DNA of 64,000 bases from Thermoanaerobaculia bacterium (GTDB taxonomy: Bacteria > Acidobacteriota > Thermoanaerobaculia > UBA5066), in assembly GCA_963719225.1 (NCBI GenBank), contig CAVRAY010000002.1, forward strand, positions 96,001 through 160,000, read 5' to 3'. Below, piece by piece: positions 28,785 to 45,856 of the stretch. How positions within the stretch are numbered: the first letter of the stretch is position 1; each line of letters begins with the position of its first letter. A program made the translations under genes and the position numbers. The notes beneath the pieces were generated by a model. It saw only the letters and a program-made list of their open reading frames with translations. It was not told the DNA's origin and ran no database searches.

Positions 28785-31700
28785 CTACATCTTGTAGAGG
28801 TCCTCGATTCGATACCGTCCGGGAATCTGAAGATCGCGCACTTTTTCAGGAAGGAACTTTGCTGTGATCATTTCTTGTTGGATGCTAAAATCGAGTTTGC
28901 TCGAGTCCGGGTTTGTCAAAGCGTTCAATGTATTCAATACTCGGCAATTGTTTTCGAACTGTTCCTCCACGAAGTCAATCACCGCGGTTGCCTCGGCTTG
29001 TGTCAACTTGAGTTTGCCGAGGAAGAAGGTCTCTGCTGCCCCCGCCAACCATTTGAGACTGGACTGTGGTTCAGCGGTTGTCGCGCATCCGTATGCGGCC
29101 AGTTCGTAAGTAAGCATCTGCTTGAAGCTCGCGGGTGGACCTGTCTGCCGGAATTGCTCGACGTGAACCACCTCGTGCCGCACGACGGCAGCTGAAGATC
29201 CTCGCGCGTACAACACTGCGTCTTTGGCGGACTTGCGCGACGGGCCTTTCTGTAGATCTGCGATCATCTGCAAGTAGGCCTCAATATCGACATAGATGTC
29301 GGCCGAGCTGTTGGTCCATGCGAAGAGCCCGATTGCTCGAAATCGCGCGCCGAGTGGATGGTCGCGCATCGCGTGCAGGGTCACACCCTGCAAAGACATG
29401 CCTGAAGCCTCCACGTCGTCGCGGATGAACGCGAGCATCACGGTTTCGAGCGGCTGCATCACGTTCGGAGACGCCGCCGTGAGATTCGACGCGAGTCCCC
29501 CGAGTGCCCCAACACCAAGTGCGTTCGCCGTTCCGGCCAGCATTGCCGGCGACACACCCGTCGCCGCCGTGTCCGCAAATGCAAGCTCTCGCGAGATGGC
29601 CGGGTTTCCGCCCCCGGTGCCTCCGCCTGCGCTGCCGTCGCCTCCGCCTCCGGCTCCCTGAAACTCACTCTGCGATCCTGTGACTTTGAAGCCGTCGCCT
29701 CCGCCGTCGGGTACTCCGCGCTGATCCATGTCCCGTCCGTGATTGATGCGCGCCCCGTCGGCGGAGATGTTCGAACCCGAACCACTGCCGGCGGCACCGC
29801 TACCGCCACCCTTTCCGTGCATGGTCTTCCACATGTCGGCGGCTTCCTTGCCCATTGCAACCGCCTGGTCCGTCACCGTCTTCAGATTTGCGCCTGCGAG
29901 CTTGCCGGCTTCGGTGGCCGCATTAAGGGTGCCCGCGGAAACCGCTTCCGACAGCGCCTGAGTACCGGCCAACCCGCTCATGTCTCGGAACATGTTCGCG
30001 CTGGCCACGGCGCCAAGTACCGCCGAGAGGCCCGCCGGGTCCGGGATCGTGGTTGGATTGAGTATGTTGAGGACCGGCGCACCCAGCTGGCCAGGCCTCA
30101 GGTCTTCGGCCATCGCTCGGCTGCCCATGTTGACCGCCGCGATCTCTGTCGGCTGCAGCGGAATCGGCGAGTCCTGCCAGTTCCAGAACCGCGTAATGTC
30201 CAGTTTCTCTGCCGAGTTGGAACGTCCCAGCACCGCCTCGGCGAACACGCCGCCGGTAGGGATCGGAACAAGGCGATCGTCGCGTTGTTCCGATGTAAGC
30301 GCCCGTTCATTCAAAAGCTCGCCCCATGTCGTGCCGACGTCGTCGATGCCGGCGGCCTCGTCCTCTTCGATGGGAGCGCGCAGCACGAGGTAGTTGCCGG
30401 CTACGGCCACGGGAGTCGGCTCCACCTGGTCACCCAACGGCCTGCCCTTCCACGTGAAACGCGAAAGCAGCATTACGAGCGTAGCGGAGTCCAGTCTCGC
30501 CAGCACAGCTTGAGAATAGTAGGCACGATTCGCTTGCAGATGCGCCATGAGCTCGGCTTTTCGATTCGACGGATCCGCCGTAACAAACGCGACTTTCTGC
30601 ATGCTGGTATCTGGCGCGAGGTCGAGCGGCATTGGTAGCGCGAACTGCTGTGTCGTAGTGCGATAGTGAAGCGTCATCGTGCCGGAATCGGCATCGGCGT
30701 CCACCTTCGCGACTTGAATGGTCGTGACGTTGCGCAGCGGCAGGCCGCCGGGCAGGTCGACCTGAAATGTCGTGTCAGGAACCGCGAATGTGCTGCTGTC
30801 AGCTGGCACACCTGCTTGGTCGAAACGGGCACGGTCAACGCGCACACTATCGAAGGATACGGCCACCAACTCCACGTCCCCCGGCACCGTAGCGAGCAAA
30901 GGGCCGGGACTGGTGATGCGACGAACGGCAAGCGGCGCGGGCGCCGTCAGAACAGTGGGCGCACTCGCCGACGGCTGTGCGCTCGAGGCTGGCGTCGCGA
31001 TTCCGTCCGCGGAAGTAACACGGGCCATCGTGGCCGCGACGCCAACTGCCGCCACGTCGCTGAAACGCGTCGGCAGTTGCATTCTGACCGCTGCGCGGAC
31101 CTCCACCTCGCCACGATCGTCCCGCAGCAAGGCGGCCACTCGTCGCGTAAGTGCGGCTGCGAGCAGCTGCCCGCGGAAGCGCGCCACGACGTCGGAAGCT
31201 CCGTCGCCACTGAAGTCCAGTAGTTCAAACGGCAGGAACAGCACGCGTTGCGCGGAATGCAGCTGCGCCAATACTCGGTAAATCTGCACGACCTCGTAGT
31301 ACTGCACAGTGAGCGCGTGCATGTGGTTGTAATTGGCGACCACGCGCGTGCTGACCTGCTCGTGCTCGGACTGGGACACTTCGCGGACCGACGATGCGCG
31401 CCTGTTGCGGACCGACGTTGAGTGCTGCTCGGTCCGGTCGTTTACGTGCTGAGACATTTCAGCTGTTACCGAGCGGTTGCCGACCGACCAAGAACTACTG
31501 AGGGCACTCATCTCGGTCTCCGCTTCCTGCGATGACTTGGCCATACCTGCGCCGATACCAAAGACACCGGTAACGCCCATGTAGTCGCCGGCCACGCCGC
31601 CTCCCGCGCTGACCCCGCTGGACCTGCCGACGCTGCTGGACTTCGACCAGCCTGAGCTCATCGAGCCGCCGACCTGCATCTCGCTGGCGACGGCATTCTG

Positions 31701-32516
31701 TACCTCACTGATCGCTCGCGAATGTTCGCTGGCGTTGTCCAGCCGGTCGGTCTCTTCGATCGTATCCGAGGTACTCGTGCGGGTTCTGCGGGACCAATCG
31801 ACGACGGCAATGCGCGTAGCCTCGCCCGGCGCTAGCGCGAGCGAATGAAGCATGTGTCCCAGCGTGATCCCTTTCGCGTACCACGACTGCGAAAGGGTGA
31901 CGAGCGCGCCGACTGCGGGCTTGCCGAAACCGGCCGCATCGTCTACCGCAGGCTGAAGAGAGATGACTCCCGTAAGCGGCTGCAGGGCCGTGTCTTCGGT
32001 GACGGCCAGCATGACCAGGGAGTTGTAGTAGACGCGCTCTGTCGGAAATTCGCCCAACCGCGGACGCAACGCCTCAGCATGCGCTTCTTCAGGATCGCCT
32101 CCAGCGCCGCTGGCGTCGCTCACCATGCGCTTTGCCACGAGGCGTGGCGGCCAAAGAGCAAACTCGCGAACGCTCTCAATCGCGAGCGCCTGCTTTAGGG
32201 CGTCCGCGTCTTCATTGGACATGCCCCTCAAGCTCGACAGCGACACGGACGCGCTGTCACGTTCTTCATCAGGAAGTCCCTCGATGAGGTGGTTGCGCGA
32301 CAGGCCCGTCTCGCCAGTGTCAGATTGGATCGAAGCGGCCGCGTTCGCGAATAGCCAGGATGACCCGAGGTCGAAGATGGTCTCAACCCCAATTCTCCCG
32401 AGCGCGCTGGCGGCGCTGTCGCTGACGCCGAGGAGGGCTGACACGCGCAACTGCAGGACTTCGTCCGCTGATAGGGCTGAGTAACCTGCCTTGAGATGAT
32501 CGGCGACGGTTGTCAT
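28785..32516 (-). CDS. Large hypothetical protein (1243 aa): putative beta-pore-forming/translocating core with C-terminal HExxH metallopeptidase-like domain
   Basis: Long ORF with AAGGAG RBS; S/T/G-rich alternating segment; Gly-rich linker; HEVVH at 29177-29163. The function is inferred. Confidence 0.8.
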   Translation of the reverse strand: MTTVADHLKAGYSALSADEVLQLRVSALLGVSDSAASALGRIGVETIFDLGSSWLFANAAASIQSDTGETGLSRNHLIEGLPDEERDSASVSLSSLRGMSNEDADALKQALAIESVREFALWPPRLVAKRMVSDASGAGGDPEEAHAEALRPRLGEFPTERVYYNSLVMLAVTEDTALQPLTGVISLQPAVDDAAGFGKPAVGALVTLSQSWYAKGITLGHMLHSLALAPGEATRIAVVDWSRRTRTSTSDTIEETDRLDNASEHSRAISEVQNAVASEMQVGGSMSSGWSKSSSVGRSSGVSAGGGVAGDYMGVTGVFGIGAGMAKSSQEAETEMSALSSSWSVGNRSVTAEMSQHVNDRTEQHSTSVRNRRASSVREVSQSEHEQVSTRVVANYNHMHALTVQYYEVVQIYRVLAQLHSAQRVLFLPFELLDFSGDGASDVVARFRGQLLAAALTRRVAALLRDDRGEVEVRAAVRMQLPTRFSDVAAVGVAATMARVTSADGIATPASSAQPSASAPTVLTAPAPLAVRRITSPGPLLATVPGDVELVAVSFDSVRVDRARFDQAGVPADSSTFAVPDTTFQVDLPGGLPLRNVTTIQVAKVDADADSGTMTLHYRTTTQQFALPMPLDLAPDTSMQKVAFVTADPSNRKAELMAHLQANRAYYSQAVLARLDSATLVMLLSRFTWKGRPLGDQVEPTPVAVAGNYLVLRAPIEEDEAAGIDDVGTTWGELLNERALTSEQRDDRLVPIPTGGVFAEAVLGRSNSAEKLDITRFWNWQDSPIPLQPTEIAAVNMGSRAMAEDLRPGQLGAPVLNILNPTTIPDPAGLSAVLGAVASANMFRDMSGLAGTQALSEAVSAGTLNAATEAGKLAGANLKTVTDQAVAMGKEAADMWKTMHGKGGGSGAAGSGSGSNISADGARINHGRDMDQRGVPDGGGDGFKVTGSQSEFQGAGGGGDGSAGGGTGGGNPAISRELAFADTAATGVSPAMLAGTANALGVGALGGLASNLTAASPNVMQPLETVMLAFIRDDVEASGMSLQGVTLHAMRDHPLGARFRAIGLFAWTNSSADIYVDIEAYLQMIADLQKGPSRKSAKDAVLYARGSSAAVVRHEVVHVEQFRQTGPPASFKQMLTYELAAYGCATTAEPQSSLKWLAGAAETFFLGKLKLTQAEATAVIDFVEEQFENNCRVLNTLNALTNPDSSKLDFSIQQEMITAKFLPEKVRDLQIPGRYRIEDLYKM

Positions 32517-32664
32517 GGTTGCCTCTCCTTCGCTTGGTCAACGTCAACTGAGGGATCGAAGAATTGCCGCATGAGCGCGGCGACGTCATTGACGGGATCT
32601 AAAACCATACGTGGGCGGACACCGCGTTATCAGCCGAGCTACTACGATCGGCGCATCTCGTTGT

Positions 32665-33306: not shown

Positions 33307-36300
33307 CTATTTCGCTTCGACGGCGGTGGGATCGTTGGTGGTCTCGTCGATGACGGAGGCGAAGCCGGTGAAAGCGGCTCCTGGCGTGGATGAAGAGAGA
33401 ACGAGCCGGGCGCCGGTGACCAGGCCCGAGACTCCCATGTCGCGGACGACCCGATTGATCTGCGTCATGCCGTTCGGGGGAACGGAGTAGCTCCTCGTGG
33501 CAAGGGTCGCGCCGGCAGGAGATACGAGAGCGGCGTCGACCGTCGTGGAAACGTCGGCGTTGCTGGCGAGGATGAGATTGGAGCGGAAGCCGTCGCCCTC
33601 GCGGATGTAGAGGATCGAGCCTGAAGAGCCGGCGGGAATCAAGTTCGAGGCAGAAACGGCCGGAATGGTCTGGCTCAACGTTCCGCCAAACCCGGGCGTG
33701 GACGTCACGGAGACGATGTTGAGAGAAGGGGTGTCCGACGAGATACGGATAGCTCCGAAGTTCGAGGTCTGGTTGAAGACCGAGCCGAGAACGTCCAAGT
33801 AGGTGACAGACTTGCCGGACTCGAGGTTGAAGGTCTTCTCGGGGCCGCTCGAGCCGTCCTGGTTGTTGCCGAGGAACTTCATCGTGAAATTCGCGGGCGC
33901 GGCGCCGACGTTGGCGACCGCGACTTTCGTCGTATAGAAGGCGAGGTTGAGGCCGCTCGAATGGGCGCTCGCGGGAAGAAGCCAGATGTACGGCGCGGAC
34001 CCGGAGACGGCGAGGGGTTGGGCGAGGACCGCGGTCGGATCATTCGTCGTCTCGTCGATGACGGAGGCGAGAGCGGTGAAGGAGGCGCCCGTAGTCGAGG
34101 AGGAGAGAACGAGACGTGCGCCGGTGACGGGACCCGAGACTCCCATGTCCCTCACGACGCGGCTGATCTGGGTCATGCCGTTCGGCGGAACGGGGTAGGT
34201 CTTCGTCGCGAGGGTCTCGCCCGCCGGCGAGACGAGCGCGACGTCGACTTCCGTGGTGACGGAGGATCCGCTCGCGAGGATGAGGTTGGAGCGGAAACCG
34301 TCGCCCTCGCGGATGTAGAGGATCGATCGTGTGGAGCCGGCGGGAATGAGATCGGTGAAAGGGATGGTCGGAATCGCCTGACCGAAAGTTCCGCCGAAGC
34401 CGGGAGTGGAAGTCACCGAGACGATGTCAAGCGTCGAGGAATTCGACGTGATGCGGATGGCGCCGAAGTTATTCGTCTGGCTGAAGACCGAGCCGAGGAC
34501 GTCGAGGAACGTCGTGGACTTGCCCGGATCGAGGTTGAAGGACCGCTCGGGACCGGTCGAGCCGTCCTGGTTGTTGCCGAGGAACTTCAGTGTAAAGGAA
34601 GCCGCCGAGACGCCGGTGTTCGCGACCGCGACGTTCGTCGTGTAGAAGGCGCCGTTTACGCCAGAGGAGTGAGCGCTCGTGGGGAGGAGTGCGGTGATCG
34701 TGCTCGCTGCTGGAGCCGTCAATTGCCACACGCCGCCGCCCTCGAGCCCGGCGTAGAGGGTCACGGTTGCCCCCGTTGGGGCCAGGGCCAGAGCGTTGAC
34801 GTACAGGCTCGGCAGGCCGGTGTTAATCGCCTCCCAGGTGCCCCCGGAGTCGGTGGACCTGAGGACCCCGCCATTCGTCCCGGCGTACAGCGTGGCTGGC
34901 GTCGTCGGATCGATGGCCAGGGCGTTGACGCTCAGGTTCGTCAGCCCCGTGTTGGCGGCGGCCCAGGTCGACCCGCCGTTAGTGCTCTTGAAGACGCCCC
35001 TGTCAGTCCCGGCATAGAGCGTGGCCGTCTTCGAAGGATCGATGACCAGGTTTTCAACGCGGGTGGCGGTCAGGCCTGCGTTGATGGCGCTCCAGCTCCC
35101 CCCACCGTTGGTGCTCTTGAAGGCGCCGCCGTTCGACGTGCCGGCGTAGAGCGTGGCAGGCGTCGAGGGATCGATGGCCAGGGCCGTCACGTAAGTCACG
35201 TAAGTGTCGGGCGCAAGTTGCAGACCTGTGTTGATCGCGCTCCAGCTCCCCCCGCCGTTGGTGCTCTTGAAGAGGCCCCCGCCACCCTCCCGATAGCTGC
35301 GAGTCCCTGCATAGAGCGTGGCCGGCGACAAAGGATCAATCACCAGCGCGTAGACGGAACCCAGTGCGAAGACATAACTCCCGAGGCTCCCCGACCAGTG
35401 AGCTCCGCCGTCGGTGCTTTTGTAGAACCCGGGGTATTCATAATAGAAATCAGATGATGTGCCGGCGTAGACGGTGTCCGGCGCCGAAGGATCGACGGCC
35501 AGGGCCTGGAGCTTGGAGTAGAGGGCTTGGATAGCCGTCCAGCTCCCTCCGCCGTCGGTGCTCTTGAAGACGCTGCCATTGGGGTAACTGCCGGCGTACA
35601 CGGTGGTCGGCGCCGAGGGACCAACGGCCAGGGCGGTGACAGAGGACTTCATGCCCGTGTTGGTGGCCGTCCAGCTCTCCCCGCCGTCGGTGCTCTTGAA
35701 GACTCCTAGGAGAGTGCCGGCATAGAGGGTGGCTCCCGAAGGATCAATGGCGAGGGCCTGGACACCGCTGTCGGTCAGGCCGGAGTTGATGGGGCTCCAG
35801 CTCCCCCCGCCGTTGGTGCTCTTGAAGACGCCGCCGCCATAGGTTCCGGCGTAGAGGGTGGCCGGCGCAGAAGGGTCGATGACCAGGGCGTAGACGTACC
35901 GATTCGCCAGGCCCGTGTTGATGGCCGTCCAGCTCTCCCCACCGTTGGTGCTCTTGAAGGCACCGTTATACGCACCGGCGTAGAGCGTGGCGGGAGTCGA
36001 GCGATCGATGACCAGGGCGTCGACGGAGACGTTGGTCAGGCCGGTGTTGATGGCGGTCCAGCTCCCCCCGCCGTTGGTGCTCTTGAAGACACCGCCGCCC
36101 TCGTTCGCCGTGCTCGCGTAAAGCGTGGTCGGCGTCGACGGGTCAACCGCCAGGGCGATGACCAGGGTGCTGGTCAGGCCCGTGTTGATGGCTGTCCAGC
36201 TCGCCCCGCCGTTGGTGCTCTTGAAGACGCCCGCCAGGAGCGTGCCGGCGTAGAGCGTAGCTGGAGTCATAGGCTCAATGGCCAGGGTGTTGACATAAGT

Positions 36301-36690
36301 GTCTGTCAGGCCAGTGTTGATGGCTATCCAGCTCTCCCCGCCATTGGTGCTCTTGAAGACGCCGCCCTGAGTACCGGCGTACACCGTGGCTGGGTTCGAG
36401 GGGTCGATGGCCAGGGCGTAGACGCCCACGTTCGTCAGTCCGGTGTTGGCGGCAGCCCATGTGCCGCCCGAGTCGGTGCTCTTGAGGACGCCGCGGCCGT
36501 CGCCTGTGCCGGCGTAGAGCGTCGCCGGGTTCGCGGGGTTTATGGCCAGGGCTCTGATGTCCCCGCCGTAGGGTCCGTTGGTTGTCCAGGCTCCGACGCC
36601 CGCCGAGACTGTCGATGCGGGAGAAGCCAGGCCTGCGAGTATGAGGAGGGGAAGAAGACGGCGGATGCGGTTGTGCGTGGCGTTCTTCAT
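33307..36690 (-). CDS. Secreted BNR/Asp-box repeat beta-propeller protein with two tandem ~235-aa C-terminal domains
   Basis: Signal peptide; about 14 repeats of ALAIDPxxPATLYAGT..GVFKSTxGGxSW; duplicated LLP.SAHSSG...ASVIDETTNDPT domain. Confidence 0.92.
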   Translation of the reverse strand: MKNATHNRIRRLLPLLILAGLASPASTVSAGVGAWTTNGPYGGDIRALAINPANPATLYAGTGDGRGVLKSTDSGGTWAAANTGLTNVGVYALAIDPSNPATVYAGTQGGVFKSTNGGESWIAINTGLTDTYVNTLAIEPMTPATLYAGTLLAGVFKSTNGGASWTAINTGLTSTLVIALAVDPSTPTTLYASTANEGGGVFKSTNGGGSWTAINTGLTNVSVDALVIDRSTPATLYAGAYNGAFKSTNGGESWTAINTGLANRYVYALVIDPSAPATLYAGTYGGGVFKSTNGGGSWSPINSGLTDSGVQALAIDPSGATLYAGTLLGVFKSTDGGESWTATNTGMKSSVTALAVGPSAPTTVYAGSYPNGSVFKSTDGGGSWTAIQALYSKLQALAVDPSAPDTVYAGTSSDFYYEYPGFYKSTDGGAHWSGSLGSYVFALGSVYALVIDPLSPATLYAGTRSYREGGGGLFKSTNGGGSWSAINTGLQLAPDTYVTYVTALAIDPSTPATLYAGTSNGGAFKSTNGGGSWSAINAGLTATRVENLVIDPSKTATLYAGTDRGVFKSTNGGSTWAAANTGLTNLSVNALAIDPTTPATLYAGTNGGVLRSTDSGGTWEAINTGLPSLYVNALALAPTGATVTLYAGLEGGGVWQLTAPAASTITALLPTSAHSSGVNGAFYTTNVAVANTGVSAASFTLKFLGNNQDGSTGPERSFNLDPGKSTTFLDVLGSVFSQTNNFGAIRITSNSSTLDIVSVTSTPGFGGTFGQAIPTIPFTDLIPAGSTRSILYIREGDGFRSNLILASGSSVTTEVDVALVSPAGETLATKTYPVPPNGMTQISRVVRDMGVSGPVTGARLVLSSSTTGASFTALASVIDETTNDPTAVLAQPLAVSGSAPYIWLLPASAHSSGLNLAFYTTKVAVANVGAAPANFTMKFLGNNQDGSSGPEKTFNLESGKSVTYLDVLGSVFNQTSNFGAIRISSDTPSLNIVSVTSTPGFGGTLSQTIPAVSASNLIPAGSSGSILYIREGDGFRSNLILASNADVSTTVDAALVSPAGATLATRSYSVPPNGMTQINRVVRDMGVSGLVTGARLVLSSSTPGAAFTGFASVIDETTNDPTAVEAK

Positions 36691-36844: not shown

Positions 36845-39373
36845 TCACGGGTAAACGAAGAAGTACGGGTCGTAGAGCAGCGTCTTGTTTCCGGGTGCGC
36901 TGTGATACTCCTTCGACTGTCCGCTGACGGTGTCCGTAACGTCGATCCAGAATTCCACGTCCGTGAACGTCGGGATCGCGATCCAGGCCCGGCCGTTATC
37001 CGTCGCCGTGTTGATCCGGATCAGATACTCGTACGTGCTCGCGTTCGCGATCCAGAAGGCGCCTATAACGTCGGTCAGCTTCGCCTTTGAGAGGGTCGAC
37101 ACGGCGCCGCCCGCGTACTGGTTCCTCCAGTGGCTGCGGATCCGGTAGCGCCCCCCGGCGAGGCACATTGTGGCCGCGTCCTCGACACAGCTACTCGCCC
37201 CAGCGGACGCCACGGTGATCGACTTCGTCGTCGCATTCGAGCCGCCGCTGTTGCTCGCGGTAAGCGTAACCGGGAACGCGCCCGCCGTCGCAAAGGCGTG
37301 GGTCGGACTCTGCGCAGGGGAGCTAAACCCGTCCCCGAAATCCCACGACCACGACGTCGGCCCGCCGGTCGACGTGTCCGTGAACTGGATCGTCTGGCCG
37401 GCTGAGGGGGACGAAGGGGTGAACGAGAAGTTCGCGATGGTGCCGCTCGTAGGAGCTGTCAATTGCCACACGCTGCCGCCGTAGAGTCCGGCGTAAAGGG
37501 TCGTCGCTCCTGTGGGATCGAGGACGAGAGTTTTGATGTTCAGGTTCGGCAGACCAGCATTAACGGCCTCCCACGTACTGCCGGAGTTGGTGGACCTGAA
37601 GACCCCGCCGCCCCAGATCGCGGCGTAGAGCGTTATCGGAGCTGCTGGATTGATGGCCAGGGCAGTGACGTGCATGCCCGTCAGCCCCGTGTTGGCGGCG
37701 GCCCATGTGTCGCCAGAATCGACGGACTTGAAGACCCCGCCGTTGTATGTCCCGGCGTAAAGCGTGGCGCTAGTCGAAGGATCGATGGCCAAGGCGAAGA
37801 CGTTCAGGCCCGTCAGGCCCGAAGCAGCCCAGCTGGCCCCGGAGTCGGTGGACTTGAAGACTCCGCCGGGGCCGTATGTACCGGCGTAGAGGGTAGCCGG
37901 GGACGAGGGATCGATGGCCAAGGCGCTGAAGTACGCGTTCGTCAGGCCCGTATTCGCGGCGGTCCAACTGGCCCCCGAGTCAGTGCTCTTGAAGACGCCG
38001 CCGCCCAACGTGCCAGCGTAGAGCGTGGCGGGGGTCGTGGGGTTGATGGCAACGGCACTCACGTTCAGGTTTGTCAATCCCGTGCTGGCGGCCGCCCACG
38101 TACCGCCGGAGTCCGTGGACTTGAAGAGTCCGCTGCCGTTCGTCCCGGTATAGAGGGTTGTGGGGCTCGACGGATTGATGGCGAGGACGTATGGTGAATT
38201 CGACAATCCCGTGTTGGCGGCGGTCCAGGTGCCGCCTGAGTCGGTGGACTTGAGGACTCCTCCGCCGCCGTACGTCCCGGCGTAGAGCGTGGCGGGGGTC
38301 GTGGGGTTAATCGCCAGGGCCAAGACGTCTACGTTTGTCAGGCCCGTGTCGGCACGGACCCACGTGCTCCCTGAGTCGGTGGACTTGAAAACCCCATCGC
38401 CCGCGGCATAGAGCGTGGCAGGCGCCACGGGATTGATGGCCAGGGTTCGGATCGAAAAGTCCGTCGTTTCCCTATGGACGGCGACCCATGTCCCGCCAGC
38501 GTTGGTGGACTTGAAGATTTCGCCACCGCCCGCGGCGTAGAGCGTTGTGGGGGTCCGCGGATCGATGGCCAGGGCGCTGGCCCAATTCACCAGTCCACTG
38601 TTGGCGGCTCCCCACGTGCGGCCGGAATTGATGGACTTGAAGACTCCGCTGTTCGTCAAGACGTAGAGCGTTGTCGGCGTCGCGGGATCGATGACCGGGG
38701 TGGAGACGGAGTTGAACCACCACGGGTCGTACGGCAGTCCCACGTTGGCGTCGGCCCAGGTGCCGCCGGAGTCACTGGACCTGAAGACTCCGCCACTCCC
38801 CGCGGCGTATAGCGTTGTGGGAGTCGCGGGGTCGATGGCCAGGGAATAGACGTCCACGCTCGGCAGTCCCTCGCTGGCGGCGGCCCAAGTGCCGCCGGAG
38901 TCGGTGGACTTGAAGACCCCGCTGCCGCCCGCGGCGTAGATCGTGGCGGGAGTCACTGGGTTAATGGCCAGGGCGGAGATGTACACGCTCGGCAGTCCCT
39001 CGCTGGCGGCGGCCCAGGTGCCGCCGGAGTCCGTGGACTTGAAGACTCCGTCATTCGCCCCGGCGTAGAGCGTGGCGGGAGTTAGTGGGTTGATGGCCAG
39101 GGCGTAAACGGACACGCCGGTCAGGCCGCTGTTGACGGCGGCCCAACTGGCTCCGCCATCGGTGCTCTTGAAGACGCCGCCGCCATTCGCCCCGGCATAG
39201 AGCGTGGCGGGGTTCACGGGATCGATGGCCAGGGCTGTGATGTCTCCGCCGTACGGCCCACCGGTCGTCCAGACCCCGACGCCCGCCGCGACCGTCGAGG
39301 CGGGAAAGGCCAGGCCAACGAGAATGAGGAGGGGAAGAAGAGGGCGGATTCGGCTGTGTGCGGCGTTCTTCAT
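36845..39373 (-). CDS. Secreted BNR-repeat beta-propeller protein with PKD domain and Cys-containing C-terminal domain
   Basis: Signal peptide; about 14 repeats; PKD motif FTDTSTGGPTSWSWDFGDG; C-terminal CVEDAATMCLAGGRY...VTDT.SG..KEY. Confidence 0.92.
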   Translation of the reverse strand: MKNAAHSRIRPLLPLLILVGLAFPASTVAAGVGVWTTGGPYGGDITALAIDPVNPATLYAGANGGGVFKSTDGGASWAAVNSGLTGVSVYALAINPLTPATLYAGANDGVFKSTDSGGTWAAASEGLPSVYISALAINPVTPATIYAAGGSGVFKSTDSGGTWAAASEGLPSVDVYSLAIDPATPTTLYAAGSGGVFRSSDSGGTWADANVGLPYDPWWFNSVSTPVIDPATPTTLYVLTNSGVFKSINSGRTWGAANSGLVNWASALAIDPRTPTTLYAAGGGEIFKSTNAGGTWVAVHRETTDFSIRTLAINPVAPATLYAAGDGVFKSTDSGSTWVRADTGLTNVDVLALAINPTTPATLYAGTYGGGGVLKSTDSGGTWTAANTGLSNSPYVLAINPSSPTTLYTGTNGSGLFKSTDSGGTWAAASTGLTNLNVSAVAINPTTPATLYAGTLGGGVFKSTDSGASWTAANTGLTNAYFSALAIDPSSPATLYAGTYGPGGVFKSTDSGASWAASGLTGLNVFALAIDPSTSATLYAGTYNGGVFKSVDSGDTWAAANTGLTGMHVTALAINPAAPITLYAAIWGGGVFRSTNSGSTWEAVNAGLPNLNIKTLVLDPTGATTLYAGLYGGSVWQLTAPTSGTIANFSFTPSSPSAGQTIQFTDTSTGGPTSWSWDFGDGFSSPAQSPTHAFATAGAFPVTLTASNSGGSNATTKSITVASAGASSCVEDAATMCLAGGRYRIRSHWRNQYAGGAVSTLSKAKLTDVIGAFWIANASTYEYLIRINTATDNGRAWIAIPTFTDVEFWIDVTDTVSGQSKEYHSAPGNKTLLYDPYFFVYP

Positions 39374-43186: not shown

Positions 43187-45790
43187 TCACTTCAACCCCT
43201 CGACGAGGAAGAGCTCGGAGGAATAGCGGTGGTGCGTGTAGACGCAGGCCTTCCCGTCCGCCGAGAAGAGGATCGCCCCGATGGCTCCGCCACCCGACGG
43301 ATTGACGGGCGGGATCTCCTTCCAGAGCTCCCGGCGTCCGGTGCGTGGATCGAGGCGGTGGACACGCGTGGGGATCGCCGGCTCGCCGGCGCGCAGCTCG
43401 TCCGCGCTGCGGACGTAGAGGAGCTTTCCGTCCGCGGAAAACTGATTCGGCTCCTCACCGGGAAGGAGGCCGACGACCTTGTGGGTTTCCGTCGTCTCCG
43501 TTGAATAGAGGGTCCAGTCGCCATCGGCCGCTTGCGCACAGAAGAAGCGTCCGTCGCCCGACAGCAGCGTCCCTCCGACCCCCAGGGGCGTGACCGCGCG
43601 GGGCTTCCCCCCGGAGAGATCCTGCACCCATGCACGCCGTCCGTGCGCGGAATCCTCCGCCATGAACCAGATTCTTCGACTGTCCGGAAAGAAACCCATC
43701 CGTCCCCCCTGGAGGAGGCCAGGCGTCTCGATGAGCCGTTTCTGTCCGGGACCGGTTGGAATGAGCAGAATCAGCGGGTCCGGACGGGCGCTGGCGAGCA
43801 CCAACTTTCCGTCCGGCGAAAGCGCCCACGCATAGCCGTCGCCCAGCCGTTTCGGCGGCGCGCCGTCGGTCCGCCGCAGATAGAGCCCGCGCCGGCCGCC
43901 CTGCCCCATGTCGTTGAAGAGAAGAGTGTCGCCGCTCGGAGCCAGATCCACGGCCACCGGGCGGTCGAGGTGGGAGAGATTCCGTGGGCGGGCCTCGCCC
44001 GGAAAGTCCCCCAGGATCTCCGAGCTCTCGGAGATGCGACCGAGGAGCACACGACCATCCGACGAGATGTCGTGGAGGACGAAGTCTCCCGGCAGCGTCG
44101 TCACGCGCCTCTTCGGGCGGCCCGGAACGACGGCGAACAGCTCGGTGGTCCCGCCCGCGACGGAGTTGAACCAGATCTCATTCGTCGCGCGGCTCCACGC
44201 AACCTCCAGGGCTCGCTCGCCCAGATCGCGGACCTGGCCACCGGGCTCCGTCACGTAGAGGTTGAGGCGGGAGACGAACGCAACCCGATCACCCGACGGC
44301 GAGATCGAAATGCGGGGATAAAGAGGGGTTCTTTCGTAGAGCACCTTGCCCACCGGAAACTCGAGCTGGTTCTTGCCTCCGACTTGGCGCACGACCGCGA
44401 GTGACTTGCCGTCCGGGCTCCAGTTTGCGAAGTACACGTCTTCGAGAAGCTCTCGTGGGGTGCCGCCGGCGAGCGGCGCCTCGGCGAGCACCCCCCGGGC
44501 CTGACTCGGGCTGGCACCCGAAATGTCCGAGTGTGGCGCGCGAAAAAACAAGGAGAACCGCGGCGCGAGAAGAAGCGCCATCTGGCCGGAGGAGGAGATG
44601 GAGAGAATCTCCGCCCCCCGAAGGCCGAGCGAACGCGTCTCTGGGCTGTCGAGGCGCGCGGTGAAGAGCTCGAGGGGCTTGCCCTCCCACTGCGCGGCGT
44701 ACACCACCGTTTGCCCGTCCGGCGCAAACCGCGCCGTCGAGATGCCGGCGCCGCGAAATGTCAGCTGCCGGAAGCGTGGCGGGGAGGTGCTCGACCGCTC
44801 GACGCGCCGGCCGAGCAGATAGATTCCGCCCAGCGCTGCTAGCAGCGCAGCCGCCAGACCGATCGCTCCCCATCGTGCCCGGCGCCGCGGAGTCTCGAGC
44901 GAGTGTCTGGCCTCGCCCGAGAGATCCGAGACGTGCTCCCGCAGGGTTGCGAGATCTCGCGCGAGGTCCTCCGTCGCCGCATAGCGGCCCCGCGGCTCCT
45001 TGGCGAGGCACCGCTCGACGATCCAGCGCAACTGAGAGGGGGCCTTGGAATTGAGTGCCGCAATCGACTCCGGCTGCTCCCGAATGATCGCCGCGAGTAC
45101 TTCCGGCCTGGTCGCCCGGTCGAATGCCTGTTTGCCAGTCATCATCTCGTAGAGGATCGAGCCAAAGGAGAACTGATCGGACCGGAAATCCACCGCTTGT
45201 CCGGCCGCCTGCTCGGGCGACATGTAGCCGACGGTCCCCAGGACGACACCGGGCTCGGTCGCGCCGGAAATTGTGATGCCTGGCTCCGTCTGCCCTCTTT
45301 CCGACTCGGAATGCGTCAACTTCGCGACGCCGAAATCGAGGATCTTGACGAAGCCGTCGCTCGTGACCATGACGTTTTCGGGCTTCAGGTCCCGGTGAAC
45401 GATGCCCGACGCATGAGCCTTGGCGAGCCCGTCGGCCACCTGAGCGGCGATCGAGAGCACCTTGCGCAGAGGAAGAGGGTCGGCATAAAGCAACTCCCGC
45501 AACGTATTTCCATCTACCAGCTCCATGACGATGAAAGAGGTCGAATCGCTCTGTCCGACCTCGTGGATCGTCACGATGTTGGGATGGTTCAAGGCGGAGG
45601 CCAGTCGCGCCTCCGCCTCGAAGCGTTTCAGGCGAGCCGTATCGGAGGACAGCGCGGCGGGCAGCACCTTGATCGCGACCTCGCGCTCAAGCCGCGTGTC
45701 CCTGGCACGGTAAACCTCCCCCATCCCGCCCGCTCCAAGCGGGCTCAGCACCTCGTACGGGCCAAGTCGCGTACTCGCGGGAATCGTCAT
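43187..45790 (-). CDS. Membrane Ser/Thr kinase with PD40/TolB-like beta-propeller C-terminus
   Basis: LGAGGMGEVY, HRDLKPEN, DFG, GTVGYMSPEQ; one TM; FAPDG/WSPDG repeats. Confidence 0.95.
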   Translation of the reverse strand: MTIPASTRLGPYEVLSPLGAGGMGEVYRARDTRLEREVAIKVLPAALSSDTARLKRFEAEARLASALNHPNIVTIHEVGQSDSTSFIVMELVDGNTLRELLYADPLPLRKVLSIAAQVADGLAKAHASGIVHRDLKPENVMVTSDGFVKILDFGVAKLTHSESERGQTEPGITISGATEPGVVLGTVGYMSPEQAAGQAVDFRSDQFSFGSILYEMMTGKQAFDRATRPEVLAAIIREQPESIAALNSKAPSQLRWIVERCLAKEPRGRYAATEDLARDLATLREHVSDLSGEARHSLETPRRRARWGAIGLAAALLAALGGIYLLGRRVERSSTSPPRFRQLTFRGAGISTARFAPDGQTVVYAAQWEGKPLELFTARLDSPETRSLGLRGAEILSISSSGQMALLLAPRFSLFFRAPHSDISGASPSQARGVLAEAPLAGGTPRELLEDVYFANWSPDGKSLAVVRQVGGKNQLEFPVGKVLYERTPLYPRISISPSGDRVAFVSRLNLYVTEPGGQVRDLGERALEVAWSRATNEIWFNSVAGGTTELFAVVPGRPKRRVTTLPGDFVLHDISSDGRVLLGRISESSEILGDFPGEARPRNLSHLDRPVAVDLAPSGDTLLFNDMGQGGRRGLYLRRTDGAPPKRLGDGYAWALSPDGKLVLASARPDPLILLIPTGPGQKRLIETPGLLQGGRMGFFPDSRRIWFMAEDSAHGRRAWVQDLSGGKPRAVTPLGVGGTLLSGDGRFFCAQAADGDWTLYSTETTETHKVVGLLPGEEPNQFSADGKLLYVRSADELRAGEPAIPTRVHRLDPRTGRRELWKEIPPVNPSGGGAIGAILFSADGKACVYTHHRYSSELFLVEGLK

Positions 45791-45856
45791 CGGACCACCG
45801 GAAATCATATCGCCCGGGGGGCCGTCGCCTCATCGTGTACCGGTGCCCTGACCGTT

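Follow-up and report, generated by a model that had tools for sequence, protein, structure and literature searches.

Among described proteins, the long-stem β-pore-formers (the aerolysin and ETX/MTX2 toxins, protective antigen, CDTb, and iota Ib) are the closest to the protein reported here. They have a Ser/Thr/Gly-rich hairpin with a hydrophobic tip between long strands and a β-sandwich domain beside it, and they are made in a soluble form. Their stems are about 100 Å long, and in translocases of the protective antigen type, the enzyme passes through the stem or rides with it. Bacteriocins that attack the cell wall or lack an immunity protein (pesticin, colicin M, lectin-like bacteriocins, and tailocins) are produced in the cytoplasm and leave the cell without a signal peptide, and some of them carry a muramidase or another wall-directed end. 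The long tube of a tailocin crosses the envelope and depolarises the membrane; the import of colicin-type proteins depends on outer-membrane receptors. Polymorphic toxin systems such as Rhs, CdiA, MafB, and LXG (Zhang et al. 2012, PMC3482391) have a conserved N-terminal part, recombining C-terminal domains, and conserved junction motifs. Features of all three groups are found in a protein of 1243 amino acids (aa) encoded by the minus strand of a 64,000-nucleotide (nt) stretch of a Thermoanaerobaculia bacterium genome (assembly GCA_963719225.1, contig CAVRAY010000002.1, positions 96,001 to 160,000; hereafter, the window). The gene is present in one copy in the source genome (4.75 Mb). Its product consists of a conserved front of ~935 residues, a Gly-rich tether, and an enzyme that is swapped between relatives and in this case is a zincin-like HExxH domain. 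The protein is likely to represent an undescribed type of antibacterial pore-former that delivers itself.

The similarity with each of the known systems is partial. Unlike the long-stem β-pore-formers, the 1243-aa protein has no Pfam or sequence match, its hairpin is ~2–3 times longer than the stems of these toxins, the enzyme is fused in the same chain, and there is no signal peptide. As for the amphipathic membrane-insertion hairpin of aerolysin-type toxins, a hairpin is established here, but its hydrophobic part is restricted to the tip (residues 308–325), both faces of the arms being polar. In contrast to polymorphic toxin systems, no adjacent immunity gene, secretion-system link, or signal peptide is observed, and the recognisable tails of the family are mostly wall hydrolases. 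There is no sequence or fold relation to bacteriocins or tailocins, no lysis cassette is located nearby, and the protein is a single polypeptide rather than a multi-protein tail. Unlike colicins, the family occurs in both monoderm and diderm phyla. Phage virion-associated lysins and tail proteins differ in that the front part matches nothing in PHROGs beyond chance or in BFVD, and no phage genes were found nearby in the loci examined. As for known anti-phage defence systems, no model of PADLOC-DB 2.0 (the 2023 library) was matched by four members of the family at E ≤ 0.1.

The main structural finding is that residues ~194–439 (core A) form one two-stranded antiparallel β-hairpin with a constant register. 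Mean-field direct-coupling analysis (DCA) of residues 191–469 was performed on 276 distinct sequences (effective number 192), and the strongest couplings were found on one antidiagonal. Of the 20 strongest pairs, 13 are in the band of i+j 617–633, where 1.1 would be expected; of the 100 strongest, 35 are in this band, where 5.4 would be expected (hypergeometric p 1e-19). Antidiagonals 625, 627, and 623 rank highest, corresponding to a register of i+j ~ 625, and the ladder is unbroken from 194–439 through 206–419, 235–389, 261–366, 265–360, 279–352, 288–337, 294–335, and 301–322 to 308–315. The sums are odd in 25 of the 26 in-band pairs with i ≥ 240, which indicates a β ladder in a fixed register and not a helical hairpin. 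Apart from covariation, conservation shows a period of two residues, in phase with the register on both arms. On the descending arm, the mean top-residue frequency is 0.75 versus 0.48 (p 2e-5), and on the ascending arm, it is 0.76 versus 0.53 (p 2e-4), with no difference in a control stretch. The same DCA applied as a control to residues 640–905, which contain core B, gave no antidiagonal hairpin pattern. AlphaFold2 places strands at residues 201–222, 286–304, 323–341, and 404–429 in the same register, with low confidence. A preliminary description of the locus, made from the sequence alone, had placed a β-hairpin at the Ser/Gly-rich stretch. The hairpin is confirmed by covariation, parity, and the conservation period; however, it is far larger than was supposed, so that the two conserved blocks previously regarded as flanking it are its two arms.

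The hydrophobic base of the hairpin (~200–230 and 396–430) is part of a folded domain. The arms (231–305 and 320–394) are polar; one face is strongly conserved, with many paired charges and small residues, and the other is variable. The alternating hydrophobic residues reported earlier for the Ser/Thr/Gly-rich stretch are confined to the tip (~308–325) and do not extend into the arms. The span between the two anchor motifs is kept tightly within 138–163 residues in 173 proteins and falls into two classes differing by nine residues at the tip; about half of the relatives have the shorter form. An arm of 62–82 residues corresponds by arithmetic to roughly 160–270 Å (~3.3 Å per residue, less with tilt). 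By eye, the invariant residues H224, H398, and H400 meet at the hairpin base under the proposed register; this cluster might bind a metal or act as a pH switch.

Sequence features of the hairpin recur in distant relatives. A protein of 367 aa, present in two genomes of the taxonomic family of the source, aligns with residues 216–419 (E 1e-5). The anchor motifs, Ser-rich arms, and Gly/hydrophobic tip are all preserved in it, and it ends in a coiled coil. When this protein was used as a query against 301 genomes of the class, five large proteins (828–1845 aa) containing both conserved cores were found. They diverge at their ends, with GH25 in one, another HExxH in a second, and none in a third. 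Distant members of the superfamily likewise have a Gly/hydrophobic tip between arms rich in Ser. In two of them (L086:4657-7143 and L087:2283-7064, minus strand), the NHMHA motif (residues 395–401 of the window protein) reads NHCHA, and the core B motif GRSNSAEK (residues 764–771) corresponds to GxCxxCE. Additionally, the hairpin region gives a score of 0.93 with ESM Atlas clusters of 429–444 aa, which have 684 and 664 members; proteins consisting only of the hairpin may therefore be common.

To judge by its sequence, the 1243-aa protein belongs to a very large unnamed bacterial family. A word-indexed search with query residues 150–1000 revealed 982 relatives at E ≤ 1e-3 among 7988 scored candidates. 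The best 120 of these are all annotated as hypothetical proteins or unnamed, with the exception of one DUF2272 label. An exhaustive phmmer search with residues 1–1000 found 2943 representatives of 50%-identity clusters at E ≤ 1e-3, 2361 at E ≤ 1e-10, and 1512 at E ≤ 1e-30. The protein had been called an orphan, which holds for its annotation and gene context but not for its sequence. In genomes sampled at one per species, a relative is encoded in 284 of 307 candidate stretches. The 75 retained loci span, by record titles, at least 11 bacterial phyla, monoderm and diderm alike: Pseudomonadota (including eight Legionella species), Actinomycetota, Acidobacteriota, Myxococcota/Desulfobacterota, Chloroflexota, Gemmatimonadota, Bacteroidota, Planctomycetota, Nitrospirota, Bacillota, and Verrucomicrobiota. 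Most hosts are free-living soil and water bacteria. The identity between phyla is still ~50%. Of the bacterial and fungal proteins mentioned earlier as having similar blocks, no fungal ones were seen: the ESM Atlas clusters are 92–100% bacterial, and all organisms named for the relatives are bacteria, one (L010) being titled simply ‘bacterium’.

No model for the first 935 residues was found in Pfam, NCBIfam, PHROGs, or PADLOC. For the whole protein, Pfam gave no families at E ≤ 1, so the aerolysin and ETX/MTX2 profiles PF01117 and PF03318 are unmatched; likewise, protective antigen and the binary-toxin B components gave no Pfam match and no PDB sequence match beyond chance level. PHROGs matches were confined to the Amidase_2 tail of relative P0047, the front part giving only a chance-level row (E 0.0096, 32 residues). 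A PDB sequence match to the 8eaw ‘capsid protein’ (E 0.078) and a match of the family profile to an unrelated fusion protein (E 0.7) were treated as chance. A full-text literature search covering listings and abstracts found no description of this family, although papers outside the searched collection are possible.

The C-termini of the family are exchangeable, as had been supposed. In a BLAST comparison with 120 relatives, homology ends in many of them at query residue ~935, ~1000, or ~1142, and two conserved motifs of the tether, GARINHGRDMDxRG (~921–934) and SRELAxxD..A.G.SP (~975–990), coincide with the recombination breakpoints at ~935 and ~1000. Tails were cut after the conserved part, using a hidden Markov model of residues 740–935, and clustered. 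This yielded 52 tail types among 212 proteins, the type of the 1243-aa protein being the largest (87 members). On a FastTree phylogeny of the hairpin region of 156 proteins (a quick tree, no support filter), the tail type changes 49 times, the minimum possible being 34 and the mean for shuffled labels 79; the HExxH tail accounts for eight changes, and DUF2272 for four with only five members. The earlier comparison with polymorphic toxins is supported as regards the conserved front with swapped C-termini; the adjacent immunity gene of classical polymorphic toxin systems was not found here.

A Pfam scan of 75 tails or proteins gave 21 matches at E ≤ 0.01. Thirteen of them were classed as wall enzymes: Amidase_2 (2), Amidase_6 (3), DUF2272 (2), Beta-lactamase2 (3), GH25 (1), HH_signal/Peptidase_M15_3 (1), and SLT (1, weak). 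DUF2272 and Beta-lactamase2 were counted here because we take them, from their folds, to be wall-directed. No nuclease, deaminase, or ADP-ribosyltransferase families were recognised in the 75 tails scanned. Two unannotated types (the tails of P0095, P0133, and P0155 and of L057, L060, and L061) have motifs that look catalytic by eye: in one of the types, ‘GVDL ... ILDNKAQ’ recalls PD-(D/E)xK nucleases, and in the other, ‘GLCT..A..HH’ recalls papain-like Cys/His peptidases. Should the former prove to be a nuclease, some tails, at the least, would have to reach a cytoplasm.

The C-terminal domain of the window protein is a putative zincin-like metallopeptidase. The model of residues 1041–1243 is confident (predicted local distance difference test (pLDDT) 87, predicted template modelling score 0.82) and shows a small sheet followed by the active-site helix. 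The HEVVH motif and the downstream YE had been pointed out before; H1114, E1115, H1118, and E1138, together with W1067 and T1068, are invariant in the 47 sequences sharing this tail. As in gluzincins, the conserved Glu is located 20 residues past the second His of HExxH. Rows of the wide VIA search are mostly zincins, with Z 4.7–7.1: the 8s5f HExxH domain (Z 7.1), 3e11 (Z 6.2, root-mean-square deviation (rmsd) 2.9, 97 aligned), Wss1 (Z 5.8), and also SprT, BlaR1, M1 aminopeptidases, and selecase. Unlike known zincins, however, the domain has no Pfam family, and every Z is below the trust line of 8. The domain is nearly confined to this family, with one short protein (293 aa) found outside the fusion.

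AlphaFold2 modelling of residues 1–1000 with an alignment of 74 sequences gave confident domains at 1–150 (helical), 405–490, and 530–755, while pLDDT is below 50 at precisely the most conserved stretches, 222–404 and 757–849. The open reading frame (ORF) and all the blocks quoted in the preliminary description are present at the residues given in Table 1, and those that it called conserved-looking are indeed so, the mean column identity in the 74 aligned relatives being 96% for residues 751–775 and 94% for 376–400. Core B, with conservation up to 96% and yet low model confidence, is a compact domain, and covariation packs it onto residues 663–720. Two helix-hairpin-helix-like motifs can be noted by eye in residues 1–150; no profile or fold match backs them. 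The best fold rows for the β-sandwich are the N-domains of PLAT/lipoxygenase proteins, which are weak (Z 5.2, rmsd 3.8, 91 aligned). The Gly-rich linker recognised earlier before the last domain has 35% Gly over residues 896–975. Hydropathy, the only method used here, reveals no N-terminal hydrophobic stretch, signal peptide, or transmembrane helix (maximum 19-residue Kyte–Doolittle mean 1.36); for the signal peptide, this agrees with the earlier view. A promoter and terminator scan around the gene gave signals at or below shuffle expectation.

Table 1. Features of the 1243-aa protein gene, its surroundings, and its short relative (positions in the window unless a locus is named).
Feature	Residues	Position	Strand	Basis or comment
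Whole ORF, 1243 aa and stop		28785..32516	minus	
Shine-Dalgarno-like AAGGAGAGG		32522..32530	minus	5 nt before the ATG start; read from the sequence
Helical N-terminal domain	1–150	32067..32516	minus	AlphaFold2, pLDDT ~90 over most
Core A, one antiparallel β-hairpin	~194–439	31200..31937	minus	DCA, sum parity, period-2 conservation, AlphaFold2 strands
GITLGH...VVDW block	216–241	31794-31871		
Ser/Gly-rich stretch	293–329	31530-31640		
Gly-rich hydrophobic hairpin tip (turn)	305–325	31542..31604	minus	
STRVV...YYEV block	389–409	31290-31352		
β-sandwich domain	~530–650	30567..30929	minus	Confident AlphaFold2 model
Helical/β domain (650–755, confident) and core B (757–849)	~650–850	29967..30569	minus	
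GVFAEA...SPIP block	756–786	30159-30251		
Single long helix	848–901	29814..29975	minus	AlphaFold2
Gly-rich flexible tether	902–1040	29397..29813	minus	
C-terminal HExxH...E domain	1041–1243	28788..29396	minus	
HEVVH	1114–1118	29163-29177		
Broken paralogue, N-terminal piece		33270-32710	minus	With signal peptide; ends in a stop
Broken paralogue, C-terminal pieces		28518-27472 and 27776-27153	minus	Frameshifted
Two tandem secreted proteins		33307-36690 and 36845-39373	minus	Many Sortilin-Vps10/BNR-type repeats
367-aa ‘mini’ relative		L077:1156-2259 and L078:1153-2256	minus	Hairpin module, charged coiled coil, and Cys-rich end, little else

The fold searches gave weak leads, and these agree. With the model of residues 1–1000, no PDB or BFVD row of Foldseek reached E ≤ 0.001; thus, the aerolysin, protective antigen, and MACPF folds, to which the preliminary description had pointed, gave no significant row. 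The wide VIA search was filled by the single long helix (844–903), and VIA on the Foldseek list returned only generic β-sandwich and hairpin rows with Z at most 5.8. Nevertheless, the long-stem β-pore-formers come top, below significance, in all three tools. The top Foldseek rows are aerolysin pore chains (E 8e-3, prob 0.13), aligned with the part that has pLDDT below 50. The stems of CDTb, iota Ib, and lysenin align with residues 283–344 in VIA (Z 3.4–3.6; 3.5–3.6 for CDTb and iota Ib). The nearest named ESM Atlas clusters are aerolysin/ETX (0.80–0.81, under the 0.9 line of the tool). No known non-membrane enzyme or phage structural fold was found for the front part, and the C-terminus is not invariant in the family.

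To our knowledge, the only nameable proteins with a Ser/Gly-rich hairpin of this style are β-barrel pore-formers. For this reason, and because of the leads of the three tools, we tentatively favour the reading that the protein is a putative self-contained antibacterial weapon, in which the hairpins would assemble into a very long β-barrel stem with a wall enzyme tethered to it. The producer would release the protein, probably by lysis given the lack of a signal peptide. Oligomerisation of the head domains would follow, and the hairpins would join side by side into a barrel whose lumen is lined by the conserved face. The tethered enzyme would cut peptidoglycan locally, allowing the stem to cross the wall, and the hydrophobic tip would insert into the cytoplasmic membrane of the target. 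Such a mechanism would explain the length of the stem. The exchangeable tail would be mainly a wall-opening tool, with the pore being the lethal part, and this would explain why chemically different peptidoglycan hydrolases are interchanged. Producers might escape by lacking the receptor, as tailocin producers do, and not by an immunity protein. Lectin-like bacteriocins need no immunity factor (PMC6465234).

Several facts weigh against this reading. All fold matches are under the trust lines of the tools, the AlphaFold2 confidence is low over residues 222–404, and its low-confidence helices at 268–279 and 385–400 disagree locally with the hairpin. The hydrophobic part of the hairpin comprises only ~8–20 tip residues, and packing against another protein or fibre formation would be equally compatible with a polar ribbon of which one face is conserved. 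Foldseek gave no match for the HExxH domain (best E 0.77; none at E ≤ 0.001), and its Pfam search returned DUF7659 alone, at E 0.043. Among the 75 tails, 54 are without annotation, and the other eight of the 21 matches are DUF3238 (3), Peptidase_C70, PKD, collagen, DUF4072, and SpoIIE, of which those other than DUF4072 are not wall enzymes. No immunity gene adjoins the gene in the 75 loci, and neither the 122 ORFs surrounding it at 12 loci nor the surroundings of the five distant members include secretion, phage, or lysis genes. The exit from the producer is explained neither by neighbouring genes nor by a signal peptide, and the proposed mechanism does not explain how the outer membrane of diderms would be crossed.

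The main rival explanation, which we consider unlikely, is that the protein acts from the inside out as a suicide device. A cytoplasmic protein triggered by phage or stress would oligomerise, its tip would breach the membrane of the same cell as a holin does, and the hydrolase would reach the wall as an endolysin does, resulting in altruistic lysis. The lack of a signal peptide by hydropathy and of an immunity gene next to the gene would be expected of such a device, and the long Gly-rich tether could pass the enzyme through a large pore. The gene is also solitary and sporadic, with a full-length copy in none of the 62 other genomes of the source’s own taxonomic family, and looks horizontally acquired; its exchangeable effector ends are a feature of many defence proteins. 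However, the PADLOC search was empty for the four members, no sensor-type domain was recognised, and the 122 ORFs are mostly metabolic or housekeeping genes with an occasional resolvase or integrase, forming no clear defence island at the 12 loci. Moreover, arms with 60–80 polar residues each and a hydrophobic part only at the far tip fit poorly to a cytoplasmic membrane that is directly adjacent.

It is improbable that the protein is a non-toxic component of an envelope or particle, in which the ribbon would be a stalk or needle (domesticated from a phage tail or an ejection-type protein, or else serving as a conduit across the wall) and the hydrolase would remodel the producer’s own wall, as FlgJ and VirB1-type enzymes do for assembly. 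Phage virion-associated lysins and the wall enzymes of flagella and secretion systems typically combine a large structural part with a C-terminal peptidoglycan hydrolase that can be exchanged, flagellar rod and phage tail chains are among the weak Foldseek rows, and one distant member has, by eye only, an OmpA-like end. Against this, the front part has no PHROGs match and no BFVD match at E ≤ 1e-3, no phage, flagellar, or secretion genes are located within 4–6 kb in the loci examined, and the gene is a single one that is not conserved within lineages. Least probable of all is a host-directed pore-forming toxin with tails acting inside protist or animal cells: although copies that share one tail type (26 members, no Pfam match) occur in eight Legionella species and in one metagenome-assembled genome each of Coxiellaceae and Rickettsiales, and although aerolysin-type toxins are the nearest, if weak, leads for the family, most hosts are free-living in soil or water, most annotatable tails are of families classed as cutting peptidoglycan, which eukaryotes lack, and the genes around the locus in the source genome give no sign of a host-associated lifestyle.

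As for the genomic context, no neighbour cluster is common to more than five of the 75 loci, and at many loci, including that of the window, there is no same-strand ORF of at least 60 aa within 250 nt downstream. In the window, the gene lies between pieces of a broken third paralogue of two upstream BNR/sortilin-repeat genes; piece 27776-27153 shows 85% identity to the end of the 1127-aa neighbour. The local GC content is 0.615–0.638 versus ~0.67 around the gene. The insertion in a broken gene, the low GC content, the absence of a full-length copy from the 62 family genomes, and the ~50% identity between phyla together point to a spread by horizontal transfer. No convincing terminal direct or inverted repeats of a mobile element were found beside the gene. 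A resolvase gene is located directly upstream of the Mesorhizobium copy, and integrase fragments are near two others (L018:7027-7605, L048:18397-19098, and L089:2730-3512 for the three loci), which hints at how a single gene moves.

Several other features of the surroundings can be noted. A gamma-glutamyltranspeptidase-like fragment (residues 79–157 of frame 28518-27472) is located between the pieces of the broken paralogue. At the end of the first tandem secreted protein, a ~200-aa domain unmatched in Pfam (‘SAHSSGxNxAFYTTN ... FGAIRI’) is present twice; the second protein ends in a PKD domain and another unmatched domain. A Ser/Thr protein kinase with PD40 repeats is encoded ~10 kb from the gene (positions 43187-45808 of the window, minus strand). 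Another genome of the class has a similarly composed kinase immediately upstream of a distant family member (L089:91-2448); this may be a coincidence or shared synteny.

The furthest-reaching form of the favoured reading, a weapon that delivers itself, appears rather doubtful: one polypeptide would assemble an envelope-crossing β-barrel needle of at least 160–270 Å with its own tethered wall-cutting enzyme, a protein-only counterpart of a phage tail or tailocin. It would represent a new class of weapon needing neither a secretion system nor an immunity gene, which gene transfer has carried into at least 11 phyla. The stem would be far longer than that of any pore-former known to us. If this is true, thousands of ‘hypothetical proteins’ of soil, water, and host-associated bacteria would be an unrecognised kind of antibacterial protein, which combines a membrane-piercing stem with interchangeable peptidoglycan hydrolases and works in Gram-positive and Gram-negative lineages. 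This would bear on how bacteria kill without secretion machines and would provide a modular scaffold that nature already fits with many enzyme ends. The β-hairpin of ~240 residues with one conserved face is in itself a structural oddity worth solving and, whether or not the toxin reading is correct, the size of the family (2943 clusters) and its ~50% identity between phyla merit a name and a structure.

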